The position numbers and the translations under genes are program-made. The notes below the pieces were generated by a model. It was not told the origin of the DNA. It saw only the letters and a list, made by a program, of their open reading frames with translations, and made no database searches. This document shows, in pieces, positions 1-32,960 of a DNA stretch of 39,998 nt. Each line of letters starts with the position of its first letter. The first letter of the stretch is position 1. The stretch comes from Dimargaris cristalligena (Eukaryota): positions 1 through 39,998 of the forward strand of contig ML002344.1 of the NCBI GenBank assembly GCA_003614675.1, in the 5' to 3' direction.

Positions 1-3000
1 TAGGAGCGGAGTCCGACTCGGGTAGCAATGGGGCGGATGGTTCCAATTCCGTGGTGGTGGGGGAGGGAGGGGGCATAACCGAGACTAGCATCAACCGCCG
101 ACCGGATTTGGGTGACGGGACCTTGGGCTCATAGTAATTACCAGATTGGGTAGGATCGAGGGACTCAAGTCGCGGAGGAATGACATAATTGGACGGTAGG
201 CTGGGATCGGCGTCTGACGAATGGTGGGAGCAGTCGTCAGCACCGCTGAGCTCACTCCCGGACTCGGTCTTGGAGGGCGAGGGGGCCGCTGAATCAACCG
301 GGTTGTTACTGACTGCACTCACAAAGGAAGCAGAGTTAAAGTCTGACCCCAAAGACAACTTGGAAATCTGACGTTTAGACTGGCCTGCAAGGGGTACAGT
401 CAGGGTATCCGCTGGCACGGGGCTCGGCGGAACGGACAGGGCTGCGGGCTCGGTAACAGGGGCCGCTGCGGAAATGGGGGCTACGGATTCGAAGAAGGAT
501 AAAATAGAGCTCCGGCGGTTGGCGGGATCAGAGCCGGAAGCACTCGTCGATTTTTGAGTGCGGAATCGGCGACTAGTCCACGAGGGCAAGGCCAGGGAGG
601 TGCGGGCACCCGCTGATACGGTCGCTGACCCCAACGATAAACTAGCCCGGGGTGGTACCGGGTCTCCAGAGGGTGTCACCACTTTGGTTGTTACACATGT
701 CGGTGAATTGGTGGTCACCATAAGCACGGACGAGCGGTTGGAGAGGGGTGGGGAAGGGGATCGGCCGCTCCGGGGGCTTGTCCGAGTAGGTGGGCTACGG
801 GCCCGAGTGGTGGAATTCCGGCGACGCATCGAATTGCGACGACCCACCACAGTTGACGGACGCTGCTTCCGCTTGGCTTGGGCTTCCACGCGATAGTGCA
901 CTTGACAAGTGGCCGAGATATCCGCCATCCACTTCCGGGCCAGAGAGCGGTCAGGAGCCTCGAGAAGCAGAACTTCGCCCGAGCCTACATCAACCAATTC
1001 AAAGAAACGGGCGGGTTCGGTCATGAAAGGTTTGGGTTCGACGGGGCGCACCATGATGTTATTGGTGGACCAAGGCTACAAAGGGAAACATAATGGAGTT
1101 AGGGCAGTGGCGGAATGTAAGGGGGCGTTATTAACCATTGTTAAATCGGGCTGGAGCAGGGGATGGGGAATGCTATTACATAGTATATCGGCATTATATT
1201 GTCGTATGGGACGGTTCTTGCGGGACAGGGTTGGCTAGTCGGAGATGGACCGAATAAAGGTCTGTCCTAAATAGGATGGGCCAAAGCCGGTATCAAAGCA
1301 TCGATTATTTCTATTCCCGATGGCCAAGGCCGTCTAGGGCGGAGAGGTTTTGACCTCTTTTGATGTAGGAATAATGACAATGTGCCGGTGGGTAGACAAT
1401 AACACAAGCCCGTAACAATGAGTTAAAACTATACTTACCTGACGATACAATTCTTTACGACCTTCGGTAAAGATGGAGCGGGGAATTTTGACCAGTAAAA
1501 GTACGTCATTGAAAAGATGGAAAATCAGTTTACGATTGCCCTTCCACTTGGTGACGGTACCCTCAATCACAAAGTGACGTTTGCCAAGCAACGGGTGCTC
1601 GGCGAAGGGATCCCAGGTGACTCCAAAGCTTCCAAAGTCAACGGTGTCACGGATTTCTAGGCATTTGTCGAGGTCCTCCTGCACGCGCGTGATTTCGTTG
1701 GCCTTTTCGGTAAGTCCAGACATCATATCGGCCGCCAGCCGGAGCTGAAAGTGATCGGGGTGGTTCGGCTTGGTGTAATGCAGAATCTTTTTGAGCAGCA
1801 TGGGGTAGCGGCTGATGCGTTGTGTGGGTTGAAGTAGAAAGCTGGAGAGGGGCAGGCGCCCGCAACGGGGATTCTCGTTGGCCTTGAGCAGAAAGCGGGA
1901 TAAACGCTCGTCCGCGGTGGTTCGGGCCATGAGCCGTTTGATGGCCTTGGAGTGGTTGGCATTGTAGTCGACGTAGCAGTCGAAATTCTGGGAGAGGCTC
2001 ATGAAGATTTCACCAATGCAAGTCGGTTTGCCCGTCACGAACTCCTGTTCCACCTGGAGCTCGATCATACTTATAAGCTGGGCGCTGCAGAGCATTAGCG
2101 ACTCGAGATTGCAGAAGATAATGGTCATTTCCGACTCCTTCAGCATGTAGCTCATGGGGACGTAGAATACTTCCAATACGACATTGAGGTTTTTGAGGTA
2201 AGTACGCTCGGTTTCTAGAAGTTCCCGGATGGAATTTTCACGGGCGCCCTCCCGTTTCATACTAGCATTGCGTAGGAGAACACAGGGGTCTCCACTGGTG
2301 GACGACGAGGTGACAGAGGCGGCGGTGGGACCCAGGGTCTCGGTGCTGGTAGATTTCTTGAGCACGGGTACAAGGGGCAGGCCCGCATCGTTGAGCATAT
2401 CGGAGTCGCCGTTGCTAACGGACCGGTTGCGACCGGGCGAGGGGACGCGTGACAGTGCGTTCAGGTGAAGAGCGGACCGTGTGAGAATCTCGAGTGGGGG
2501 TGCGGAGGGTTCCGGGGGGAATTCTAGCGAAGGTGCATCCATGCCAGTGGGGGTGGAGTAGAAGCTGCTGGAGGTGGGGCTGGGTTCGCCATCGGGATGG
2601 CATGAACGACTGAGGCGGTGTTCCAAGTGACGGGGAATGGTCAAGTCGGGGACACTGTATGCGGACTCCTCCGGCGACAGGTAGGAGGCAAAGCGAAAGT
2701 GGGCGGGACGGGGCGGTGCCACGGGCCGAACGGCCCGCGGGGAGGCCGGTGGCGTGAGGGATATGGTGGTATGAACGGTGGTGGGCTTGGCGACGGCCAG
2801 TACAGGAGAGGCGTCGGGCCCACTGGGTAGGGGAGGAATAAAAGAATCGAGGGAGGAAGCGTTGGAATCGCGCGGGGAGGGGGTCCAGACGGGAACGTAG
2901 TCGGAGGAAGGAAGAGGATTCGACTCGTGGCGGATGAGGTTGGACCCCAAAAGAAAGGAGAGATAATGCGAGGAGACGGAGGGATTAAGCGAAGGATTAA

Positions 3001-3061
3001 CAGTTTGCCGGTAGTGACGGTGGTGGGTAGGGACACCGACTTCGTCCGAAGAATACCACAT
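1..3061 (-). CDS. Dbl-family Rho guanine nucleotide exchange factor (DH-PH, intersectin-like catalytic module) with S/P-rich N- and C-terminal regions; 3' end runs off the window
   Basis: Exon 1 is 3061-1439 (DH motifs RENSIRELLETERTYLKNL and LSSFLLQPTQRISRYPMLLKKIL; PH start HLFNDVLLL). Intron 1438-1076 (GTAAGT...TTTGTAG, phase 0). Exon 2 from 1075 continues in frame (LYRQ|PWSTNN...LEAPDRSLARKWMADI, the PH C-terminal helix) and stays open to base 1. Confidence 0.9.
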
Positions 3062-5228
3062 GGTAGGATAAATAGACGGGAGAGATAAACAATAGGGAGG
3101 GAGGGCGGTGGGACAGGGTGGTTGGTAAAAATTATTGGTGAGAGCGTCGCGCCAGGGGATGATAGGGAGGGGGGAGGGAGTGTGAGTAATAGTGGTTGTA
3201 GGGGGGAAGCTCTCAGGATAGGCTAAAGTCAGCGCTTTACAACGTCATGCAGCTGACTAGTGCGCGGGGGTAGAGAGTGAGAACGGGAGGGGCGTTAACA
3301 GTCTCTCAGCGGAGAAGTGCGAAAAGTTCCGTGTAGAAAACGACACTGAACCGAGAAGACTAGAGGGGATATGAAAAAGGAAGAAGGATTGGGGGATAAT
3401 ATCTGAAGAAAGGACGAATCAATTCGGGTGGATAACAACAATAGGGAAAGAGAGGACTTAGTTGGTTGGTTAATAATAGTAAGATATAACAGCGTTGGTA
3501 ATAATGGGTTGATGTAATCACCATAGTATATAGTAAACGCGAAAAAGGAGGAGGAATTCGCGAGTGGCTCGGCGGGTTAAGTAGACCCACCCCGCGGAAA
3601 ACCCTGATTGGGCTCTATCAAGCGACCCCCCGTATAGTATAGGAAGGGGTGTAGCAGTGAGTTGTCCTCCCACCCACTACCACAGGCTCAGCGTAAAATG
3701 AATCCAACCGGGGCAATGTGAGAGTCTATGCACTCCCAGTATTGGCGTGATAAGGGGCGAATAACGTTCGTTCGTACGTACCTACGCGGTCTCCACACGA
3801 CTGGGTGGAGGAATTGGGACTTAATCCGACAGTCGGAAAGCTTACAGATAAAGGGAGTATATCATATATAATCTGAAACCCCAAGGAAGCAGATGGCCGA
3901 GACGCAGTGAATGAGACAGGAGGTGGTCGCAATTAAAGAAGCGACCCGCAGTGGGGGAGGATTAATCGAAAGCCGGAAGTGAAACGGTTCCAAGTGTCTG
4001 GGAGGGAGACACTGTCCGAAACTGAACGGGTTCAAGCTTATTAAGCGGTGTTTTAACAGGGCAGTGGAAATACAAGAGAAACGCAGCAGGGCAACACAAT
4101 ATAGGGAAAAGAGGGAGCGGAGCGTCTTTGGGAGTGGCGTGCAGACTGGGCCATTTATATACAACGGATGCATATAGCAAGTGGGTGCATATAGCGAGAG
4201 GATTAGCGGACCAGGAATATATTTTTAGATGCGAATGAGATGCAGTTATTTCAATAGAGTGTGGGTGATCAGTGCATGACGGAAGAAGGCCCGATGGTCC
4301 TCCAGGAGGAGTAAAAATAGCTGGCTGGGACCAAGGCGCATATGTAAGAAGAGGAAGAATGTATGCGGGAAGGGTCAGTTGGGTGGGAAACCACACCCTA
4401 CCCTGTTGAAAAAGAGAGGGTTAGTTAGGGGATTGGATTGAGCTGGTAATAGACAGGGCTGGAACAATAGGCTGGGCCTGTGACTGGCCGAATTGGCGGG
4501 GATGGCCACCTGCAAGCCCCTCCCTTTTAAGACCCTAGGCTATTCCTCGTACAACCAAACTTTTCTGCCCACCGCTGTGTCTACCTGGAAGAATTTGGCT
4601 CCCCTTTTCGACTTTATCTCCGGGCGGTGTTCTTACGGAGGAAGACGCTGGTTCTATTACTGTTGCTATTCCCATACCCTAGGATATCTTCAGCCGGTTC
4701 TATACACTTGACCAGGGTTCATCACCATTCTGATACTCGGCAGAAAAAAGGGCCGACCATTCCGGCTTGAATCATTCCATCCGACCATGCCCTTTTTCCT
4801 TACTTGGCTACCGGCCGATGCTGGGGCCAGTATTCCACTAAAATCTAATTAAACTCCTTCTGTAAATGCACTAAACGACCAGGCATGCAAGGTTAGCCTC
4901 CGTGGCACGCCTTAAATACCGCTGGGTTGTCCCAGATCGAATTATCGGGTTGGCCGGGTGGCTGCGGAAGACTGATGTAACCAGAGGTCTCGGCAAACAT
5001 GCTTAGAGATTTGCCAAGAAGTTCTTTATTTCTATCAAAGCGACCGGGTACCTTCCGTTAATAACCCCCGGGCCCAATCAACCTACAGTAGAATCCGCTT
5101 TAAAGTCCGTCAAAGGAAACTGCGTAGCTTGGCCCGTAACGTGTTCTAGTCACGTCAAAGTAGTTCATTGCCAAATTATGCCACGGGGTATGTGTGTGAT
5201 TTCACCCCTGGCATGCTGGTATGGAAGA

Positions 5229-10461: not shown

Positions 10462-12353
10462 TTAATAATATTGCGATTCGGCAATCTGTAGCAAATGGCT
10501 TTCTAGTTCCGGGTCTTCCTCTTCCAACTGGAACAGGGAATTGTTGAAAATGCTATCGGATGTATCCACGCTCCGGGCCCCTGTGGAGAGGCGGTGGGAG
10601 GTTGGCGCTGCGACAGGCTTGGCGCTGGAGCCTTGCTGGATCAACCATCGGGCCTGGCTCTGTAAGCCCCGCGTAATGAGATAAATACTATACCAAATCA
10701 AAGTGATTAGTTCCTAATGGCATTTGCCATTGGCTCAACAATTTTATATTCGAGACGCCCAGAACCGTTCCAGGTTATACTTCATAAACCAATCTAACCA
10801 TGGTGTGGCCTTTAAACCCCCACTTAAAATCTGTTTCAAAAACTACATGGACTAATAGCCAACCGAACTTACCTTGATAGTGTGGGCGAAGTGTTCCAAA
10901 ACCATATTGGTCCCGTTAGTGGGGATTCGCTTCATCATTTCTTGAAATAGCCGGATAGTATCCACAGGGTTCGAGCATCTGCACCAACGTATTGTAATAA
11001 AACCCACCCCAGTATATTTACAAAAGGTAGTCCAATTCCATGGAAACATTAAATCGTTAGTGAGGCAGGAGTAATGGGTTTTGCGATGCCCCTAGTTCAA
11101 CTAAAGGGGCGAATAATGTCGATAATTGGGACGTGAATGGCCTCGTGTGTGAAGTATACTGCAGTCATTGTCCATATGTCTTACCGTGCTATCCCTCTAA
11201 GACCTTCTTTTTCGTCCAGGCTCAGACTTACTGCCGGAGTGGGCAGAGAAGTTGTAATATATGTCGGGAGTGGCTTAAGGGGTATATGAAGGCTTGTTCC
11301 CGGCTGGTCTACATTCCAGAAGGACCATTGTATGTTTACGAGTGGTAGAGACGGTGGGGCGCTCTGCTCGGGTAAGGGCTGGTCGTATTCTGTGGGGGCC
11401 GCGGTCAATACGCCGAGAATGAACGGGTCCGAGTGGAACCCATGCAGGCCACAGGATAGCAGGAAGTCCCGTAAATTACCCGTTAGAGTCATTTCCCGCA
11501 TGGATGGATAGTTGGGCGACTGACCTCGGTAATGGTAATAACCCACGACCCGCTAGTTTGAAATGTAAATAAATAGAGAGAGATAAAACCACATGAACTA
11601 TGGCATTAGTTTACAACTAGCAATAAGGAAAGTGATGCATAATTCGGTCATATAATTTTGGATGAAGATGTCACTCTTTGGAGCAAAGGGGTGGGCGTAT
11701 TAGGTGATTAGTATACCTTGTCTCTGATTCCCCAAGAATGCAGTATGTCGCCATCAATTGACCCATCGGGGTTGTAGAACTTGGGGTCGGAACGGTTCCA
11801 TGGGTGGTAGTCGCTGATCTCTAAAAGTGGCCAAATCGGGGTAGCATTTGAATCAATTAACATATATTTATATATAGGCACCCAATATATCCCATTAGCA
11901 CCCAAATTCACTGGTTTTTTTTATAAAACCCCTATTTACGTTAAAGCTCTAGTTTCTCCCCATTAATTTCGGGAAGCCGTGTAAATGGTACAGAGGTATA
12001 GCCGGACTTACCCATCGAGTGCGCCGGTTGGAACTCGGCACGCCCATCATCGCTATCGTCGGTAATGCCAGATGTGACATGGTTCATGTGTATGACCCGT
12101 CCTATCAGAAATCCTTCCTAATAACCACGGTCAGTATAGCCAGTAACAAGGTTAAAGTATCAATGAGTACTGGATAAATACCATTACTTATGAAGTGAAG
12201 GGCCAATGCGGTCCGGTGTAAGGCTTGCTCGGCTCCCGCTGGAGTCGGTGAGGCTTAACTTACCTGAACCTCGGGGGACTTTTCCAAGTCTTGGGAGAGC
12301 CGCTCGAGAAGCGCGGGCGCAAGGTTTAGGGTAAATGGTGTGGCTTCGGCCAT
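10462..12353 (-). CDS. ABRAXAS/FAM175 (Abraxas1/ABRO1)-like MPN- pseudo-DUB scaffold protein, ~363 aa, 6 exons
   Basis: Exons 12353-12264, 12117-12012, 11820-11717, 11552-11232, 11091-10873 and 10713-10462, all GT...AG and in frame (1092 nt). Spliced protein: MAEATPFTLNLAPALLERLSQDLEKSPEVQEGFLIGRV...GITDD...EISDYHPW...KFYNPDGSID...RVVGYYHYRGQSPNYPSMRE...FILGVLT. This matches the ordered human Abraxas1 motifs EGFLLGEV / SITD / FSFYNSSGEVN / VVGWYKFRR / MTFRE / VFLLLT. Exons 5-6 rest on splice signals and frame only. Confidence 0.78.
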
Positions 12354-12849
12354 GACTATTACTCTCCGTGGGGTTTAAGTCAGAGATGCAGGTATAGGTC
12401 TAATGGGAAAATATGGCATAAGAAAAGGAAGACTGGCCCTCAAGGCTGATGAGCAATAGGGGGAAGGAACAGTACAAGAGGCAACCATGGTTGTACAAAA
12501 TCTATCAAGCATTCACCAAGGCAGCCCCACCCGGCCCACTGTCAACCTCGCCTTCGATAGCACACCGCTCACATTGCAAAACCATTTCAGTTTATATAGT
12601 TGGCTTGTTTTAGCTACTTGACCCATCCTCTACTTACATTTCCGAGGCAGCCCCACCGTTCTTAGTCGAGTCCAGCGCTGGTTAGATCGCCCTCTCCCGA
12701 AGTCACACCGCTAGCGAACGTAAAGCCCCACCTGTGTGCATTTCTCAACCTCGGCTTACAGCATTTAGGATAAACCTTTCCGGCAAGCCCCTACCTACGT
12801 TTTGTATTGCATTTACGCTTCTCAGCTCCAATATTCGATAGCTAACATT

Positions 12850-14007
12850 ATGGCCGATCCCCAACCCGAATATGTCGACCGGGCCAAGCAGATCCTGGCT
12901 CAAGACACCAAGGTGGTTCCCGAGTTTTGGGTCAAGAAGTACCGGCAGGAAGCTTCGAAGAACTGGTAAGGGACCTTACATTATCACCTAAAAAATAATA
13001 CGTTATTTGGCCAGACTGATAACCATCCCTAAGAGGTCTTTACTAACGCCCCATATATTCATTTGATAACCCCTCCCCCATTCCCTATCCCACCAAATAG
13101 GGATAAATTCTACAAGCGTAACACTACCAATTTCTTCAAAGACCGGCACTGGATTGAGCGGGAGTTTCATGAGCTCCAATCGCAAAATGGTAACGAGCAA
13201 AGCAAGTTGGTAAGACCACAGCCCAATTACAATGTTTCTATATATTTGGATATGGCATATATATCCAATTTTCAAAACGGGTATTTTCGAAGGATCACCA
13301 TGATATAGGAATTACCTGCAGAGAAAAACCAACACCGGCTAATCGATGTCTAACTTATTGGGTTTACGCTGCCTGTGTTTTTTTTTATATACCTTCACAC
13401 TTGTGGGGTGTCAACCATACCATGCGTATAATAGACCCTTTTGGAAGTCGGCTGCGGGGTCGGTAATTTCCTGTTTCCACTACTCGAATCCCACCCCAAC
13501 CTGTTCGTCTACGCCTGTGACTTTTCGTCGCGGGCAGTAGGTCTAGTCCAAGCCAACCCCCTCTACACGGCCTCCGACCGCTGCAAGGCCTTCGTGTGTG
13601 ACCTGACGCAGGACGCGTTAACCGACTCCGTCCCCCCCGCCACCGTGGATCTCATCTCGATGATTTTTGTACTGTCCGCCATTCCCCCCGAGAAAATGGA
13701 CCAGGCCGTCGCCAACGTATTCGCGGCGCTCCGGCCCGGGGGTAAAGTCCTGTTCCGGGACTACGGGCTTTACGATGCCGCCCAGCTCCGGTTCAAGAGT
13801 GGCAGCAAATTGGAGGATAACTTTTACGTGCGGCAGGACGGTACCATGGCGTATTATTTCAGCCGTGCGGAGCTCGAGGCCCTCTTCCGTCGGGCCGGGT
13901 TTGTACCCGAGATGGTGGATAATATTTTCCGTAAAACTACGAACGTCAAGCAAAACTTGGACGTGGATCGTATTTTTGTGCAGGCCAAATTCGTCAAACC
14001 ATTGTAA
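12850..14007 (+). CDS. METTL6: tRNA N3-methylcytidine (m3C32) methyltransferase, METTL6/METTL2/Trm140 family, ~265 aa, 3 exons
   Basis: Exons 12850-12965, 13101-13209 and 13435-14007. Motifs KNWDKFYKRNTTNFFKDRHWIEREF, LEVGCGVGN, YACDFS, IFVLSAI, LFRDYGLYD and YVRQDGT are family hallmarks. The short N-terminus and C-terminal RIFVQAKF favour the METTL6 subgroup. Confidence 0.93.
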
Positions 14008-18279: not shown

Positions 18280-20291
18280 ATGCAGCCCCCCACTGAACAA
18301 CTGGTCGATAAAGAGAGTAAGGCCGAGGCCAACAAACTGGAAACGACGGGTAACGAAACCACGATGAACCTCAACAACATTGTGTATCAGAACATTCAAT
18401 CCTCCCCGTACTTCAAATCCTTATAGTAAGTTTCCAGGTCCCATTTCAAATCGGTATAGTGATGTGAATGGAACCCGACTGCTGCACTTATGGGTGAGCG
18501 TAACGTGGGCTAGCTTATGGAAATATCCTTCACCCCAGCCCCCTATGAGCTTATTGTCTGTTTGGATAGTTACTTACTCATCTAGCTAATCACACTGTGT
18601 GATTTTTATTTTGGTCGCCGGTTGTTATTTGATTACCAGTGAGTTTAAAACATACCATGAAATTATCGATGAGGTTTATAACCGAGGTAAGTGCATACAA
18701 TAATACCTAGGCGTATTGGGGGACGGAGGCTCACAGTCTATTCTGGTGCGGCTAGTCTAGTGTCCAAGTGTAGTTCGCTAATCCATTTGCAGTATACTAG
18801 TCACTTTAGTTCCTTGGTAGTGACTGGTTGAATAACCCAATGTTTCTTGGTTTTTGCTACTATTTCTCTATGACGTATTTCTTTATTCCCAGTGGAGTCC
18901 CTAGGTAGGTGACGAACGTCCGCGGTCTCTCTTATTTCTTTCTCCGATACCTCGCGAATCCTCTGTATTTGGCGTACCAGGGCAGTAAGGGCCTTTTCCA
19001 TGAATGTCATATCGACTGTGTTTTCCTGATAACTCCACTAAAGGTAGAGGGGGTATCTTTACCATCCATCCCCCCTTGCGGATCTGAAGGGACTAAAGTG
19101 TCGAGCAATAACCCTTATCAAGTGGTATGGTCCACACCCGAACCTATTTATCGAGCCTATTTCCTAGTGCTATTATTGGCTAATTGGTTACACTCCCTGG
19201 TCAATAGATCCATTCTTAAAGGGAACCACCGCCTCGTCAGCGTTCTGTCTTCTCTACAAGCTATGGACCTTGCGACTTACCGTCAAACAGATCAATGGTC
19301 TCCTCAACCACCCCGACTCTCCGTAAGTATATTCGGATATCTTCTACTCTTATCAAACTTTTCTAGCCACAGTGAGCCAGGGTCAACATGGCCCCATCTT
19401 CATACCCATAGCGTTGATGACTGCCGTATTAATTTCCATACGGGTTTCCTTTACTATTATTTACTGTTACTGCACTGTGCCCTTTAATTAGTTATATTCG
19501 AGGACTGGGTCTGCTGTACCTTCGTTACGTGTGTAAACCCGTTAAGCTCTGGGATTGGTTCGAGCCATTTCTTGATGATCGCGAAGAAATTGTAATTCAG
19601 AATGGCGCACCGGCTAAGTATGTCCTCTCTCTTTAGTTTCCAATAAGTGCACCTAAGGTTCGTTGCGCACCATTCCCAAACCCTACCCGAGTCCAAGTGC
19701 CCACTAGTTTCAACGTATAGACTAAATGGCCAACTTAACCAACCTTATTAACTGTTATTTTTATATATTTAATGACCAACTATCTCGATCGACTACGCTA
19801 TCCCACTATATAGAACCATCGGCCAATTCTGTCATCAACTTTTAACGGAGTTGAAATATAGTGGAACATTACTCCCTCGTATCCCGGTCCCCATTGCCCG
19901 CACTATTGAAGAGAAGCTCGCGGCGCGCCGAGGGAGTGGGAGTCGTGATCAAAGGGCCGAGTCTCGCAGCCACCATAGCCGAGGGAGACGTTCGCCAGCC
20001 CGTCATGAACGATCACCGCCACGTTCCCGTAGCCCTTCGCACCGGTACCGTGGACGTGAACCAGCCCGTCGGCACGACCGCTCCCGGAGTCCGAGACATA
20101 GCTATAGACCCAGTCGAAACCGTAGCCGCAGTCGGGATCGGTATGCCCATGATCGTCGTTCTTACGGATCTAGTCGCTCAAGTTACGACCGGCGTGAACG
20201 GTCTCGAGATTGGCATACCAGCCAGCACCACCCCAGACGGTCCTCCCCACCTGAAGGAGATGGGTCAGAAGATGGTCAGATTCTTGATTAA
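18280..20291 (+). CDS. PRPF38B: PRP38B-type (PRPF38B/SRL1-like) splicing factor with C-terminal RS-rich domain, ~307 aa, 6 exons
   Basis: Exons 18280-18425, 18640-18686, 18893-18904, 19208-19322, 19492-19617 and 19814-20291 (924 nt). Motifs GNETTMNLNNIVYQNIQSSPYFK, KTYHEIIDEVY, SAFCLLYKLWTLRLTVKQINGLLNHPDSPYIRGLGLLYLRY and TLLPRIPVPI, followed by RS/RD repeats. Confidence 0.9.
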
Positions 20292-27025: not shown

Positions 27026-29755
27026 ATGCATCCATTGTGCCTGTCGCGTCCACCCTCACAATATTTACCTCTACTTTCACTACATTCCACTTCGTCCATC
27101 CTTTCCCGTTTTCAAGCCACCTCCGTAATGACAAGCCCCATTACTGACCACCCGCGTCTACTCGCCTGGCACCGCCGGCATTTCGGGGCCGCTCTTCCCA
27201 ATAATGGTCACCGTCGGCATTCCGCATCGACGCACCCCGAGGCCTTTCAATTCTTCGCCGAAACCCTGCCCTTCTTATTAGCCCAGCTGGACCACCACCC
27301 CTCCTCCTATCTACCCACCTCGCTGGCACCCCTAACCCCCGTCGCCGTAGAGGCCCTCCATACTCTCCTGCCCCGTCTATCGGATCGGGACAGCGACCGA
27401 TTGGCCTTTGTCGCACCCGCATGGACCGGTACAGCGGGCCGGCAGCGGGTGAAGTGGTACCACCAATGGGTACGCACCCTCTGGGCCCAACCGACTGTCC
27501 AGCACGCCATGCGGTCCCCCCCATTTCGGCGCTGGATTCAGGCCGCCCGGTCGACCTCGGCCCTCAATCCCCCCCGGTCTTCCGATGTTCAGGGCCACTT
27601 GCGTACCCTACGCGACGCCATTAGAGCTGAAGCAACCTCAACGACACCCAACAAACTATCCCAACTTCCGGCCACCCTTTTACCCGCCCTGATTGTATGG
27701 CCCGAAACCATCCAGCAAGTGGCCGGGCTCGTGGCGCTAGCCGCCCAGCATCAATTCCAGCTGGTTTCCGCCGGTTACCGAAGTAATATTAGCGACCCGC
27801 GTACTAAGAGTTTCGATCCGACCCGGCCTCTGGTGACAGTTGTCACTCGGCTGCTAAATCGGATCTCCCCAATCGACGAGGCCAATGGTCTGGTGACGGT
27901 GGAAGCTGGAGTTTCATGTCATAATCTTGCCGACCTTTTAAGTGAACGGGGCTGCCAGGTAGTAGGTATGGATTTGGGGAATTATTCTGGATCCGTCGGC
28001 GGGCTGATTGCTGCCCCATACGGTGCACCCCCGAGCCTGTCACAGCGCCAGCAACTTTACGCGCTATACTCACTAACCGTTGCCACGCCTAAAGGTATGA
28101 TCCCTCTCCCATTGGACAAGTGATTTTTTTATTATATACAATTATATGGTGTGGTATAAATATTTGCTCCCAGCCAGTACTTATAACTTCATTAATTCCG
28201 GGGCTAATAGCTAAATCCCTATATCACTTTTGGCATGTCCCCCATATATAGGTGTCATCAATCACATATGTCAGTATCCATCCCTCAACCACGGACCTGA
28301 CAGTACGTGGGCATTCGTTGGCTCTGTAAGTGGAAATCAAATTCCCAAATGATTATTTTACTATTTAGCACACTTTACCTTTGTAAAGTCCACCCCTTTG
28401 CTTACCCTTAATGTACTTCTGTTTATATCTATTGCCACAACTAGTTGGGCACGCTAGGCATTATTACTCAAGCCACGTTTCGTTTGGCCCCCCGCCCGCC
28501 TAAACGGTCTACACGCACCATTATTTTTCCCTCCTGGGACCGGGGCCTCGGGTTTATCCACCGTTTATCTCGCTTAGCACTCCCTGGCCTAGCCGAATCT
28601 CTACTGCTCGATCCGTCGGAAACACAATTGGCCCAGTGCCTATATTCGCCCACCGCGTTGGACCGCCTCTACAGCCGTATTCGAGGCCTTTACCTATCCC
28701 ACTGGAAAGGTTTTACCTATGGACACACCGTGGTAGCCCACCTCCGACTATCTGCCCCAGATGAGATGGCGTTAAAACGCGACGAAACTCGAGTGCTGGG
28801 GGAGGCGGTTAAGTTCAGTGGGTATGATATAGGACCTCTTCTCGGTGACCGGGTCGAAGAGCTGCAAAAACTTCGTCCTAGCCTGCGTGAATACAGCCTA
28901 CAATCCCACTGTGTCTGGGTAAGTCGCTGTTAGCCCTATTAGGCATAGTTTTTTCTTTAAAAAAAAACAATAGCACACTGAAAGCAATCAAGTAGGTGAG
29001 ATACTGCTTCCTTCCCGTCAACTAACACGTGTTCGCTTGTCCTCTGGGTACTCCCTATATGATATGCGTGGATTCTTCAGGACTGTCTCCCGCTCACGGT
29101 ACCGTGGTCCGAAACTTTAGTGACCGCCGAAGCCGTCCGCGCCCGTTATTATCGACTTACGCAACCGCTGGGATTCAGGCCGTACCTAGGTATGGTAGCC
29201 ACCTTCGCATCTTTAGCTGACCCCGTTCTTTCGATTTATATAGGCTGGTCTATTGACCGTCCGGTGTCCCAACCATCCAGAAAGTATATGGAGGCTATGC
29301 ATACTATAGTTCCCCAGATAACAGCAGCGTTACTAGGCTCGGACTCCAGTTCGGATTCCGAGTCTGGATCCGATTCCGAAATTGAACCCGAACCCGAAAA
29401 ACCGGGGCCAATCCAGACTACTGAGAAGACCAAATCACCCTCCACCGAGCCTGGGGAGTCTTCCGGGACCAATGCCCTTCCTGCCCTAGAACTCCCCACA
29501 GAAAATAACCAACTGGTGGCTTCTTTCCAGGGGCCAGTTGACCAGTTAGCGCTATGGACCGACGTATCCTACGCCCTGATGGAACTTCCTGTTCGGTATA
29601 GGTCTACCATGGGAAACCCGCGTATTCTAGGACCGGGTACATCGGCATCGCTCCGACCCCCAGCCCCCGAGTCCAACCTCACGGGTCTTTTGGTAAGTAA
29701 GCTATTGTTTGATGTGAATCAATACATCGCATACCGCACCATTATGTCCCTTTGA
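27026..29755 (+). CDS. FAD-linked oxidase (VAO/PCMH fold), divergent alkyldihydroxyacetonephosphate synthase (AGPS/ADPS)-like, ~730-760 aa, 4 exons
   Basis: Exons 27026 (or ATG 27128)-28094, 28252-28325, 28445-28918 and 29081-29755, in frame. Motifs PALIVWPETIQQV, LNRISPIDEANGLVTVEAGV, GSVGGLIA, VATPKGVI, GPD...FVGSLGTLGIITQATFRL, LLDPSETQL and TVPWSET are colinear with AGPS. Confidence 0.75.
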
Positions 29756-30442: not shown

Positions 30443-32095
30443 TTACTTTTCCTTGGCCGACTCCTCCCGGGAGCCGTTGAGGTGCCATTCGTGGGCAGGA
30501 ATGCGGACCAGACGGTTAATCTCGGGTAGGATGAACCAGAAGAAGAAACCACTGCCCAACACGGCGCAAACCGCGCCCACAATGTAGTAGCCGTCCTGAA
30601 TAACCAGGCATTGGCCCTGGAGGCTAGCGCAGAGTTGCTTACCCTCTTCGTTGAGGCAAGAGAAGGTCTGGCCGAGTTTGTTGGGTACACTACAGGTGGA
30701 TACGCTGAAGTAGTCGACTGCTTCCAGGATAAAGTACTTGGGCCACGTGCCCCCGAAGTTGCTGATGGTGTTGAGAAGGGTCATGTAGGTACCGCCAATG
30801 GCGGGGTCGGCGATGTTGGTCATGAATACGCTGATGCTAACAAATTGCACATTACTCATAAACGAGCTGAGGACGGTGGTGGCCACGACCACTACGAAAT
30901 ATCCGAATGAGGTATCCTGGTCGGGACAATAGGCCACCACGAGCATTCCAATTACAGCAAAGATTAACCGACCAATGAACGCGTACAACCAAGGCTTCAT
31001 GGGATTTTCCCCGCGGCTCCACTGGGCAGCATAGTAGCCGAAGATAATCTGGAAGGGGAAGTCGATTAGAACGGTGAGGGCCAGATCTTCTTTACCGATG
31101 CCCTTCTCGAGCAGTTTCAGGCCCGTGACGGCCTCGTTGGTCACGAAACCAATTTTAGCGCACAGCATGATGAGGATAAAGCTGCGCATGTGGGGCAGCT
31201 TGATGATATCCCAGATGGTACGGTAGGTTTCGGTGATGCCAAATTCCTCCTCCGTGGAGTTATCCTCGGATTTGAACAGGACCAGCCAAAGGGTGACTAG
31301 GAAATACATGAGGGCCCAGAATTGCAGGTAGCCACTAAGGGGTAGAACGCCGACGTCGTTGGGCACCGAGCGGAGGTATTTGTTACTGAATTCGGCGGAG
31401 TTAAAGGCCAAGAATACGGTGAAGGACAGGAAATAGCCGGTGTTCAAACCAATGGTTTGGCAGGTCGAGGCATACGACATGTTTTCCTTGGACAGTAGAG
31501 TCAGAGCCCAGCCGTCGACGGAAATGTCCTGGGTAGCACTGAGGAGTACCATGGCGAAGAAGACCAGGGTAATGGTGGTCATGTATTCGGCGGGCTGGGC
31601 CATGTACGTGTCGATGGTCCGGGCCAGCCATAGGCAGAGGCAGCCGATGGCGAGCTGGATGGGGACGATCCAGGTCTTGCGCCGACCAAAAGAGCGGAAA
31701 TAGAGAGAGTCGACAATGGGCGACCAAAACAGCTTGAGGGAGTAAGGGTAGGAGGCCAAGGAAAAGACGGCAATTTGGGCGTAGCTCAGTTTGGCCTTGA
31801 GGAGGAACGGAATACTACCAAAGGCCAGGCCCACCGGGACCCCCTGGAGTAGGTACAGGACTACTAACAGGAGAATATTGGCCCAGTCCTTGCGGAAGTT
31901 CGAAGGTAGGTCGTCTTCCTCGACCTTTTCGGAAACTACGGGACTGACATGGGCGTGGGTCGGTCCGTGCTGGGGCGCAAACGGTGGGTGGTGGCAGGGA
32001 ATGTCCAGGCAGTCACAGGCCTTTACCTTCGGGGATGCCTGGGACGAGTCCTTTTCGAAGGGCTGGCGTTTACGCACGTCGACTTTATGGGCCAT
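30443..32095 (-). CDS. SLC33A1: Acetyl-CoA transporter 1 (AT-1/SLC33A1, Acatn family MFS), ~550 aa, intronless
   Basis: Motifs LLVVLYLLQGVPVGLAFGSIPFLL, YPYSLKLFWSPIVDS, FGRRKTWIVPIQ, SATQDISVDGWALTLLS, DPAIGGTYMTLLNTISNFGGTWP and DGYY. ATG 32095 sits in a GCCACCATGG context. Confidence 0.95.
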   Translation of the reverse strand: MAHKVDVRKRQPFEKDSSQASPKVKACDCLDIPCHHPPFAPQHGPTHAHVSPVVSEKVEEDDLPSNFRKDWANILLLVVLYLLQGVPVGLAFGSIPFLLKAKLSYAQIAVFSLASYPYSLKLFWSPIVDSLYFRSFGRRKTWIVPIQLAIGCLCLWLARTIDTYMAQPAEYMTTITLVFFAMVLLSATQDISVDGWALTLLSKENMSYASTCQTIGLNTGYFLSFTVFLAFNSAEFSNKYLRSVPNDVGVLPLSGYLQFWALMYFLVTLWLVLFKSEDNSTEEEFGITETYRTIWDIIKLPHMRSFILIMLCAKIGFVTNEAVTGLKLLEKGIGKEDLALTVLIDFPFQIIFGYYAAQWSRGENPMKPWLYAFIGRLIFAVIGMLVVAYCPDQDTSFGYFVVVVATTVLSSFMSNVQFVSISVFMTNIADPAIGGTYMTLLNTISNFGGTWPKYFILEAVDYFSVSTCSVPNKLGQTFSCLNEEGKQLCASLQGQCLVIQDGYYIVGAVCAVLGSGFFFWFILPEINRLVRIPAHEWHLNGSREESAKEK

Positions 32096-32960
32096 GGTGG
32101 CCGCTTGCCAGGAGCAGGGGAGTAAGGGTGAATGCCGCTGGGGATGGGAAGTGGAACTGCGCAATGTATGGGCAGGTGTTGGTAAATAAACAAATGAGAA
32201 AGTGCAGGGAGGGTTCAACGGGACGGAAGGAGCCAAATGGGCGGCTGTGGATAAGTTATATGGCCTCCACTAACTAAGCGAAAGAAAATCAATGCGATAA
32301 CTGAAAGAAGGGGGAAGGGAGCCAGGGAGAGAGTGTATGTATTATACTCGATGTGGTTTATAGGGAAAAGATGATCGCTGCGGCTCCAAGGGCCCCTCTC
32401 TCTCTGCACCAGGGCTTAGTTCAAAGTACACCTGTCGCATCGGCTGGCGATTGACTATTGGCTATTATTATGAGCCAAGTACAGCTCAGGATTATACAGT
32501 GAACCTCTCCTCCTCCCCTTTGTAGCTTGTTCGCACATGGAGTATTTTTAGTGCACGGACTACTGCTTCAGGCTCAGCTAACCCCGAACGGCTTACATTC
32601 CGACAGGAACCGCGTAGAGAGAGGATCCCTTTCGGGAGGATAGTCAGTCCACTGAGGGTGGCCCCAAAGTACATTTCAAGGGCTTTAAAAAGGCACACCA
32701 GTTGAATAGACCACCTTGCAGTTACGCCTCGCTGCAGCTAAAATCCACGGGTTCCGAGGGACGTGGTCGCAGTGATTGGTTGAATGGAATGCCTGAGGAG
32801 GGGAGGTCGCCTGGCAGCGCATCCATCATATGCCAGCTACTTTGGCTTTGGCCACCCATCTCCAGTTGGCCAGCGGATGCTAATACTTGGCCCTATTCAC
32901 CCTGTTTTAGCTAGCTAACCCATTGTCCAGCATTCGCCCTCTTCATTATTCTGAATCCCG

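Follow-up and report, generated by a model that had tools for sequence, protein, structure and literature searches.

The window analysed here, positions 1 to 39,998 of contig ML002344.1 of Dimargaris cristalligena (assembly GCA_003614675.1), a fungus of the order Dimargaritales in the Kickxellomycota, carries on its minus strand, from position 12353 to 10462, a gene of six exons and five GT-AG introns. We put at about 70% the probability that this is an intact nuclear gene for a 323-residue pseudo-deubiquitinase of the FAM175 family, most likely the partner of a BRCC36-type enzyme in the cleavage of lysine-63 (K63)-linked ubiquitin chains. As detailed below, its product is an MPN- protein of the Abraxas/ABRO1 (FAM175) family, and no other MPN family accommodates it. 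An earlier note on this DNA had arrived at the same identity for what it took to be a hidden gene, and the identity has been borne out, as PF21125 is the sole Pfam match of the product and both its PDB sequence matches and its best fold matches are Abraxas-type. The strings on which that proposal had been based (EGFLIGRV, ITD, KFYNPDGSID, VVGYYHYR, PSMRE and FILGVLT) are all present in exons 1-4, and the H-x-H-x7-S-x-x-D motif is missing, as claimed. The possibility, also raised there, of a best match to CSN6, Rpn8, eIF3f/h or EMC8/9 did not materialise in any Pfam or PDB sequence search. The gene is, however, unnamed in databases rather than hidden, since it had already been called in two public annotations, BJ085DRAFT_31940 and H4R33_005884. 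Searching with the translation of exon 4 retrieves both of these proteins at 98-100% identity. The one matching at 100%, P0001 in our numbering, is deposited as 'hypothetical protein BJ085DRAFT_31940 [Dimargaris cristalligena]' with 323 residues, and the protein collection already assigns PF21125 to it; the other, P0002, is the 234-residue H4R33_005884 of the same species.

Family membership was first of all apparent from profile matches. Pfam was searched to an E-value of 10, with the HMMER filters dropping most matches above about 0.1, and the only family reported for P0001 was PF21125 (MPN_2A_DUB_like, described as 'BRCA1-A complex subunit Abraxas 1 MPN domain'), which covers residues 17-134 at E 3.4e-08 and scores 33.7 bits where the cut-off is 27; JAB, MitMem_reg and UPF0172 gave no match. 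When the six exon translations were searched singly at the same threshold, none of the six matched a family, so that the domain is recognisable only after splicing. A PDB sequence search with P0001 alone, again to E 10, returned five chains, every one of them Abraxas 1 or Abraxas 2, with a best E-value of 0.002. Using a profile of five rows without named animal sequences, seven of eight PDB matches were Abraxas 1, Abraxas 2 or FAM175B, at E-values from 3e-16 to 1.8e-08, the eighth being a phycobiliprotein at E 1.5, which is noise. A profile including animal rows reached Abraxas at 2e-54, but this is so by construction. Neither P0001 alone nor the profiles found a chain of CSN6, Rpn8, eIF3f/h or EMC8/9 in the PDB. 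A FAM175 hidden Markov model (HMM) built without Dimargaris scores the gene product at 80.9 bits.

When 1.84 billion cluster representatives were scanned exhaustively with HMMER, eight proteins matched at E-values up to 0.001, two of them from Dimargaris itself and six from elsewhere (E 2.4e-07 to 9e-04), with 33-37% identity to the animal proteins over the matched stretch. All six non-self matches carry PF21125, at 33.7-146 bits. Three of them, two of hemichordate and one of spider origin, bear the name 'BRISC complex subunit Abraxas 2-like'; the remaining three comprise a metagenomic 'hypothetical protein' and two unnamed entries. A word-index search for homologues of the full-length protein recovered only the two Dimargaris entries.

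The features of the protein, in order from its amino-terminus, map to the window as follows.

11274..12344, minus strand: MPN- domain of pseudo-deubiquitinase type, from about residue 4 to about residue 193 and split by introns 1-3; the VIA-align alignments span residues 4-193
11493..11534, minus strand: degenerate JAMM site, in which H107-Y-R109-x7-S117-M-R-E120 replaces H-x-H-x7-S-x-x-D
10630..11219, minus strand: post-MPN helical region, residues 212-268, interrupted by introns 4-5, a candidate counterpart of Abraxas alpha4/alpha5
10465..10476, minus strand: carboxyl-terminal S-Q-Y-Y-COOH, following the acidic stretch EEEDPELE; the protein ends in ...AESQYY

An AlphaFold2 model computed from a nine-row alignment has an MPN core with predicted local distance difference test (pLDDT) values of 80-92, built from strands at residues 7-11, 30-45, 58-72, 102-109, 145-152 and 173-180 and helices at 13-24, 89-94 and 118-134. 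With this model, Foldseek placed Abraxas 1, Abraxas 2 or KIAA0157 chains at all of ranks 1-11, and the seven best entries in VIA-align were likewise all Abraxas-type (Z 16.0-17.4, root-mean-square deviation 2.2-2.8, 139-163 residues aligned). The eighth entry, a proteasome chain, followed at Z 12.1, and Rpn11, Rpn8 and CSN chains scored 12.1 or less. The ESM Atlas, queried by features, gave the Abraxas 1 MPN cluster as first match (0.95, 209 shared), and when queried by structure with its own model it returned PF21125 clusters from chordates, arthropods and streptophytes in the first four rows, followed by BRCC36. Because animal or animal-like Abraxas-2-like rows entered the alignment behind the model, we regard the AlphaFold2 fold match as corroboration of the family assignment, not as independent proof of it.

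The zinc site of this MPN domain is degenerate. A regular expression for H-x-H-x7-S-x-x-D finds nothing in P0001, where one histidine of the zinc triad is kept while the second histidine and the aspartate are lost. Most relatives read K/R/T-F-R-x7-S-x-x-E at this site, making the spacing in the Dimargaris protein typical of the family, and R109, S117 and E120 are invariant in an alignment of seven sequences. This agrees with the MPN- state. After the MPN domain, the model predicts at low confidence two or three helices (residues 212-222, 227-239 and 247-268), which may be the counterpart of alpha4/alpha5 of KIAA0157, the helices that bundle with those of BRCC36, and after these the tail is disordered and acidic. 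It terminates in S-Q-Y-Y-COOH, an SQ kinase consensus whose +3 position, the last of the chain, is aromatic. MAFFT sets this tetrapeptide beneath the ...SPVF ends of two hemichordate proteins, an alignment that we treat only as a lead.

Among well-characterised proteins, the closest to the Dimargaris protein are the two animal subtypes. Abraxas 2 (ABRO1, KIAA0157, FAM175B) is the MPN- scaffold of BRISC and is represented by PDB entries 6h3c, 6r8f and 8py2 and by the ant structures 5cw3-5cw5. To this subtype belong six of the seven top fold entries (Z 16.0-17.4) and the names of the 'Abraxas 2-like' relatives; PF21125 is shared as well, and the succession described for KIAA0157 (PMC4579573), first an MPN- domain whose zinc site is degenerate and then helices, is also the one predicted here. 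Unlike Abraxas 2, the Dimargaris protein has an extra loop in its MPN domain, a short helical region predicted at low confidence and a total of 323 residues, as against 408-641 in the named animal relatives, and in structural alignments the two are only 14-17% identical. Abraxas 1 (ABRAXAS1, FAM175A), the scaffold of BRCA1-A (PDB 6gvw, 9smn and 9sqv), provides the best PDB sequence matches (E 0.002 with the single sequence, 3e-16 with the profile), ranks 1-2 in Foldseek and a VIA-align Z of 17.2, and it resembles the Dimargaris protein in ending with S-x-x-aromatic-COOH. The hallmark of Abraxas 1 is a carboxyl-terminal pSPxF motif that serves as ligand of the BRCT repeats of BRCA1 (PMC4747905); the Dimargaris tail, S-x-x-Y, departs from it in having no proline and a tyrosine in place of the phenylalanine. 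The Dimargaris protein predates the split between Abraxas 1 and Abraxas 2, and we therefore assign it neither to BRCA1-A nor to BRISC.

Family members outside animals also exist in plants, where BRCC36/Abraxas-like proteins, including Arabidopsis BRCC36A, are known (PMC3017590), and where a Streptophyta cluster of the ESM Atlas, with PF21125 on 50% of its members, matches the Atlas model of the Dimargaris protein with a TM score of 0.67. The presence of the family in plants means that it predates the opisthokonts, and that the fungal copy is a case of retention, not invention.

The gene structure that underlies these comparisons, with the 3' exons given according to the preferred 323-residue model, is the following.

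12264..12353, minus strand: exon 1, residues 1-30; start ATG at 12353-12351, donor GTAAGT at 12263
12012..12117, minus strand: exon 2, residues 31-65 plus one nucleotide; begins with EGFLIGRV and holds ITDDSDD
11717..11820, minus strand: exon 3, up to residue 100; holds KFYNPDGSID; donor GTATAC at 11716
11185..11552, minus strand: exon 4, preferred model, residues 101-222 plus two nucleotides; VVGYYHYR...PSMRE...FILGVLT...IQWSFWNV
10873..10978, minus strand: exon 5, preferred model, residues 223-258; the 363-residue model begins this exon at 11091
10462..10659, minus strand: exon 6, preferred model, residues 259-323 and the stop codon TAA at 10464-10462; the 363-residue model begins this exon at 10713
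10979..11091, minus strand: stretch read only in the 363-residue model, GHRKTHYSCL...IRWC, most likely intron; GC 0.42, with the CTAAC of the preferred intron 4 inside it
10660..10713, minus strand: stretch read only in the 363-residue model, ELITLIWYSIYLITRGLQ, most likely intron; GC 0.37, with the CTAAT of the preferred intron 5 inside it

The earlier note had described six exons with GT-AG ends joining in frame, and this is what we find, from ATG 12353 through five introns to the TAA at 10464-10462; its count of 363 residues probably results from misplaced introns 4 and 5. The start codon is the sole methionine codon of the stop-to-stop frame 12255..12374, and the reading frame closes at the TAA once the six exons are spliced. 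In the 5' half, enumeration left one sensible in-frame, stop-free option for each of introns 1-3 (12264|12117, 12012|11820 and 11717|11552), the second of which has its donor GTAAGT at 12011. The acceptor at 12117 is the sole in-frame, stop-free option for exon 2, and the family HMM spans this junction; indeed, the alignment to the HMM built without any Dimargaris sequence runs unbroken over junctions 1-3, from residue 14 to 154.

For the 3' half, by contrast, enumeration gave ten in-frame exon combinations, of which the 363-residue and the 323-residue models are one each. The former ends exon 4 at 11232, where the latter ends it at 11185, and continues with exon 5 at 11091-10873 and exon 6 at 10713-10462; the combination 11185 / 10978-10873 / 10659-10462 reproduces the deposited P0001 letter for letter. 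Homology does not discriminate between splice models here, as four variants score 80.5-80.9 bits and the HMM alignment ends at residue 154. The branch-point motif YTRAY occurs at least once in each of the three shared introns and in both remaining introns of the 323-residue model, and is absent from introns 4 and 5 of the 363-residue model. In the 323-residue model, intron 4, with donor GTAAGA at 11184, has CTAAC and TTAAT 78 and 70 nucleotides before its 3' end, and intron 5 has CTAAT and TTGAT at 47 and 38 nucleotides. The two stretches specific to the 363-residue model have GC contents of 42% and 37%, compared with 35-47% for the introns and 46-59% for the exons of the 323-residue model, and tryptophan, cysteine, tyrosine and phenylalanine together make up 25% of the 56 residues unique to the longer model, against 9% in P0001. 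A codon-usage score per codon is 0.30 for exon 5 (10978-10873) and -0.10 for the adjoining 11091-10979; for 10713-10660 it is +0.24 on 18 codons and does not argue against coding, so that for this stretch only GC content and branch sites do. Based on the branch sites, the GC content and codon score of the additional DNA, and its excess of the four residues, the 323-residue model is the more probable one at introns 4 and 5.

The border of exon 6 reads ...HTIK|SQARW... in both deposited models. P0002 joins exon 1 straight to exon 4 and omits part of exons 4-5, and it thereby loses EGFLIG...KFYNPDGSID, half of the MPN domain, with no Pfam match remaining. P0002 is mis-spliced, an annotation error to be corrected.

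The family has a second fungal member. Profile searching found BJ944DRAFT_263571 of Cunninghamella echinulata (Mucorales), together with a fragment from ENA; PF21125 matches the Cunninghamella protein at 57.7 bits, and this protein is 22% identical to P0001 (E 1e-05). The environmental proteins P0003, P0007 and P0009, from metagenome, Logan and ENA records, form a tight group with the motifs KFYNW[RK]G[ED]I, IVGYFKFRRQT and THTYDYSFWTV, which can be aligned with the Cunninghamella sequence. Leaving aside the Dimargaris entries, the best match to P0001 in the scan of cluster representatives is P0003. These three may be further fungal Abraxas-like genes.

How the Dimargaris protein might function is suggested by its animal relatives. 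In the CfBRCC36-KIAA0157 structure (PMC4579573), the MPN- subunit contacts BRCC36 both between the MPN domains and in a helical bundle, and it supports catalysis. By analogy, the Dimargaris protein would most likely pair, MPN to MPN and helix to helix, with a BRCC36-type JAMM deubiquitinase; this pairing would keep the active site of the enzyme in a productive shape, and the resulting pair of enzyme and pseudo-enzyme would then cleave K63-linked ubiquitin chains. The arrangement would be of the same general kind as in Rpn8 and CSN6, the partners of Rpn11 and CSN5, in which an inactive MPN twin backs an active JAMM enzyme (PMC3431379, Table 1). Rpn8 and CSN6 share their fold with the Dimargaris protein (Z about 10.5-12); unlike it, they reside in PCI-domain complexes, and there is no match between them at the sequence level. 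We consider it reasonable to infer that Dimargaris may possess a complex of the BRCA1-A/BRISC type.

One could go considerably further and propose that zygomycete-grade fungi (Kickxellomycota and Mucoromycota) keep a working BRCC36-Abraxas K63 core, that S-Q-Y-Y is a phospho-dependent ligand of tandem BRCT repeats, that the ancestral opisthokont complex was BRCA1-A-like and wired to DNA-damage signalling, and that Dikarya lost the module. We consider this combined scenario doubtful and offer it as a long shot.

Several observations weigh against an intact gene for a BRCC36 partner. No H-x-H-x7-S-x-x-D motif is found in the six-frame translation of the 40-kb window. The PF21125 score exceeds the cut-off by only 6.7 bits, the match reaches from position 8 to 121 of a 171-position profile, and the E-values of the single-sequence PDB search, 0.002-0.26, are weak. 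Four of the nine rows in the AlphaFold2 alignment are animal or animal-like Abraxas-2-like sequences, so that the structural likeness is partly by construction, and AlphaFold2 run without an alignment gave an unusable model (mean pLDDT 37). The post-MPN helices are predicted at a pLDDT of only about 46-57, and their region matches no Pfam family at E-values up to 10. Finally, P0001 and P0002 are identical over their overlap, which makes a ratio of nonsynonymous to synonymous substitution (dN/dS) unobtainable, and neither expression nor purifying selection of the gene finds support here.

An alternative reading is that the protein is a true FAM175 homologue in a lineage that has lost BRCC36, now either an orphan with another role or decaying toward a pseudogene. 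P0001 is the most divergent PF21125 match in our set, at 33.7 bits compared with 57.7-146 for full-length relatives; in its MPN domain, within EYDQPLPEQSAPPSLP, the alignments show some 11-13 inserted residues; and the family looks sparse in fungi, with one other named fungal protein found. Yet the six exons keep an intact frame and good splice signals, the residues that do not vary across the family (F80, Y81, G85, G104, R109, S117, E120 and L127) are retained, and PMC3969565 reports BRCC3 and BRE from non-model fungi, all of which leaves an orphan or relic rather unlikely.

It is very improbable that the protein belongs instead, as a divergent representative, to a different MPN- family (CSN6, Rpn8, eIF3f/h, EMC8/9 or Prp8-type). 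The MPN fold is common to all of these, so that Rpn11/Rpn8, CSN5/CSN6 and eIF3 chains reach Z-scores of 10.5-12.1, and ranks 2-27 of the ESM feature search include JAB, eIF3h and EMC8/9 clusters at 0.83-0.89. Abraxas-type chains, however, lie about 4 Z units above all other MPN chains, and none of the other families produced a Pfam or PDB sequence match at E-values up to 10, by which this explanation is already largely refuted. We give equally little credence to contamination of the contig by a mucoralean host or an animal: Dimargaris is a mycoparasite of Mucorales, a species of which (Cunninghamella) also carries the family, and the best named sequence matches are animal proteins, but the same protein pieces occur in two annotations of D. 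cristalligena that carry different tags and lie on contigs of unequal length, identity is only 22% to the Cunninghamella protein and 33-37% to animal proteins over the matched stretch, and the neighbours on the same 40-kb stretch are ordinary eukaryotic housekeeping genes.

Among the larger genes of the window are those for a RhoGEF-PH protein, a methyltransferase, an acetyl-CoA transporter, a FAD-binding oxidase, a HEAT-repeat protein and a C2H2 zinc finger protein. An S-adenosylmethionine-dependent methyltransferase gene at 12850-14007 (plus strand) lies head-to-head with the Abraxas-like gene, the two having a common upstream region of about 500 bp (12354-12849); Methyltransf_12 matches its exon 13435-14007 with E 4e-18, and its first exon likely starts from the ATG at 12850. 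At 1334-3244 on the minus strand, probably continuing into 2-1075 (minus), is a large gene with RhoGEF (E 7.5e-43) and PH domains and a long N-terminal region rich in serine and proline. The acetyl-CoA transporter at 30443-32269 (minus; Pfam Acatn, E 1.9e-164) is encoded by a single frame of 608 codons, in contrast to the intron-rich Abraxas-like gene. A FAD_binding_4 oxidase-type gene spans 27026-29755 (plus) and is divided among three or more open frames (27026-28123, 28445-28933 and 29063-29755), with the Pfam match on the first frame only. An open frame at 19776-20291 (plus) contains a long run rich in arginine and serine (RSRSPSHRYRGRE...SRNRSRSRDRY) that resembles the RS domain of splicing factors.

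Work on BRISC and BRCA1-A has been almost wholly on animals, with some in Arabidopsis. According to PMC3431379, both complexes are absent from Saccharomyces cerevisiae, and the standard account that fungi lack them follows from their absence in yeasts. A survey from 2014 (PMC3969565) dated FAM175A to 'before vertebrates' and placed BRCC3 and BRE (BABAM2), as well as MERIT40 (BABAM1), in some non-model fungi. In view of this precedent, the idea of such a complex in non-model fungi is not new; what is new is the Abraxas-type subunit, and the literature searched contained no description of a fungal Abraxas-type protein. Since plants have the family, its differential retention is no surprise in principle, and the Dimargaris gene does not represent a new kind of system. 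At the level of database records, two entries are corrected, one that was nameless and one that was mis-spliced with half of its MPN domain gone. For the biology of the family, the occurrence of an Abraxas-type scaffold in Kickxellomycota and Mucorales fills the gap that this survey leaves, and the pair of enzyme and pseudo-enzyme would date back at least to the common ancestor of fungi and animals, having been lost on the way to Dikarya.

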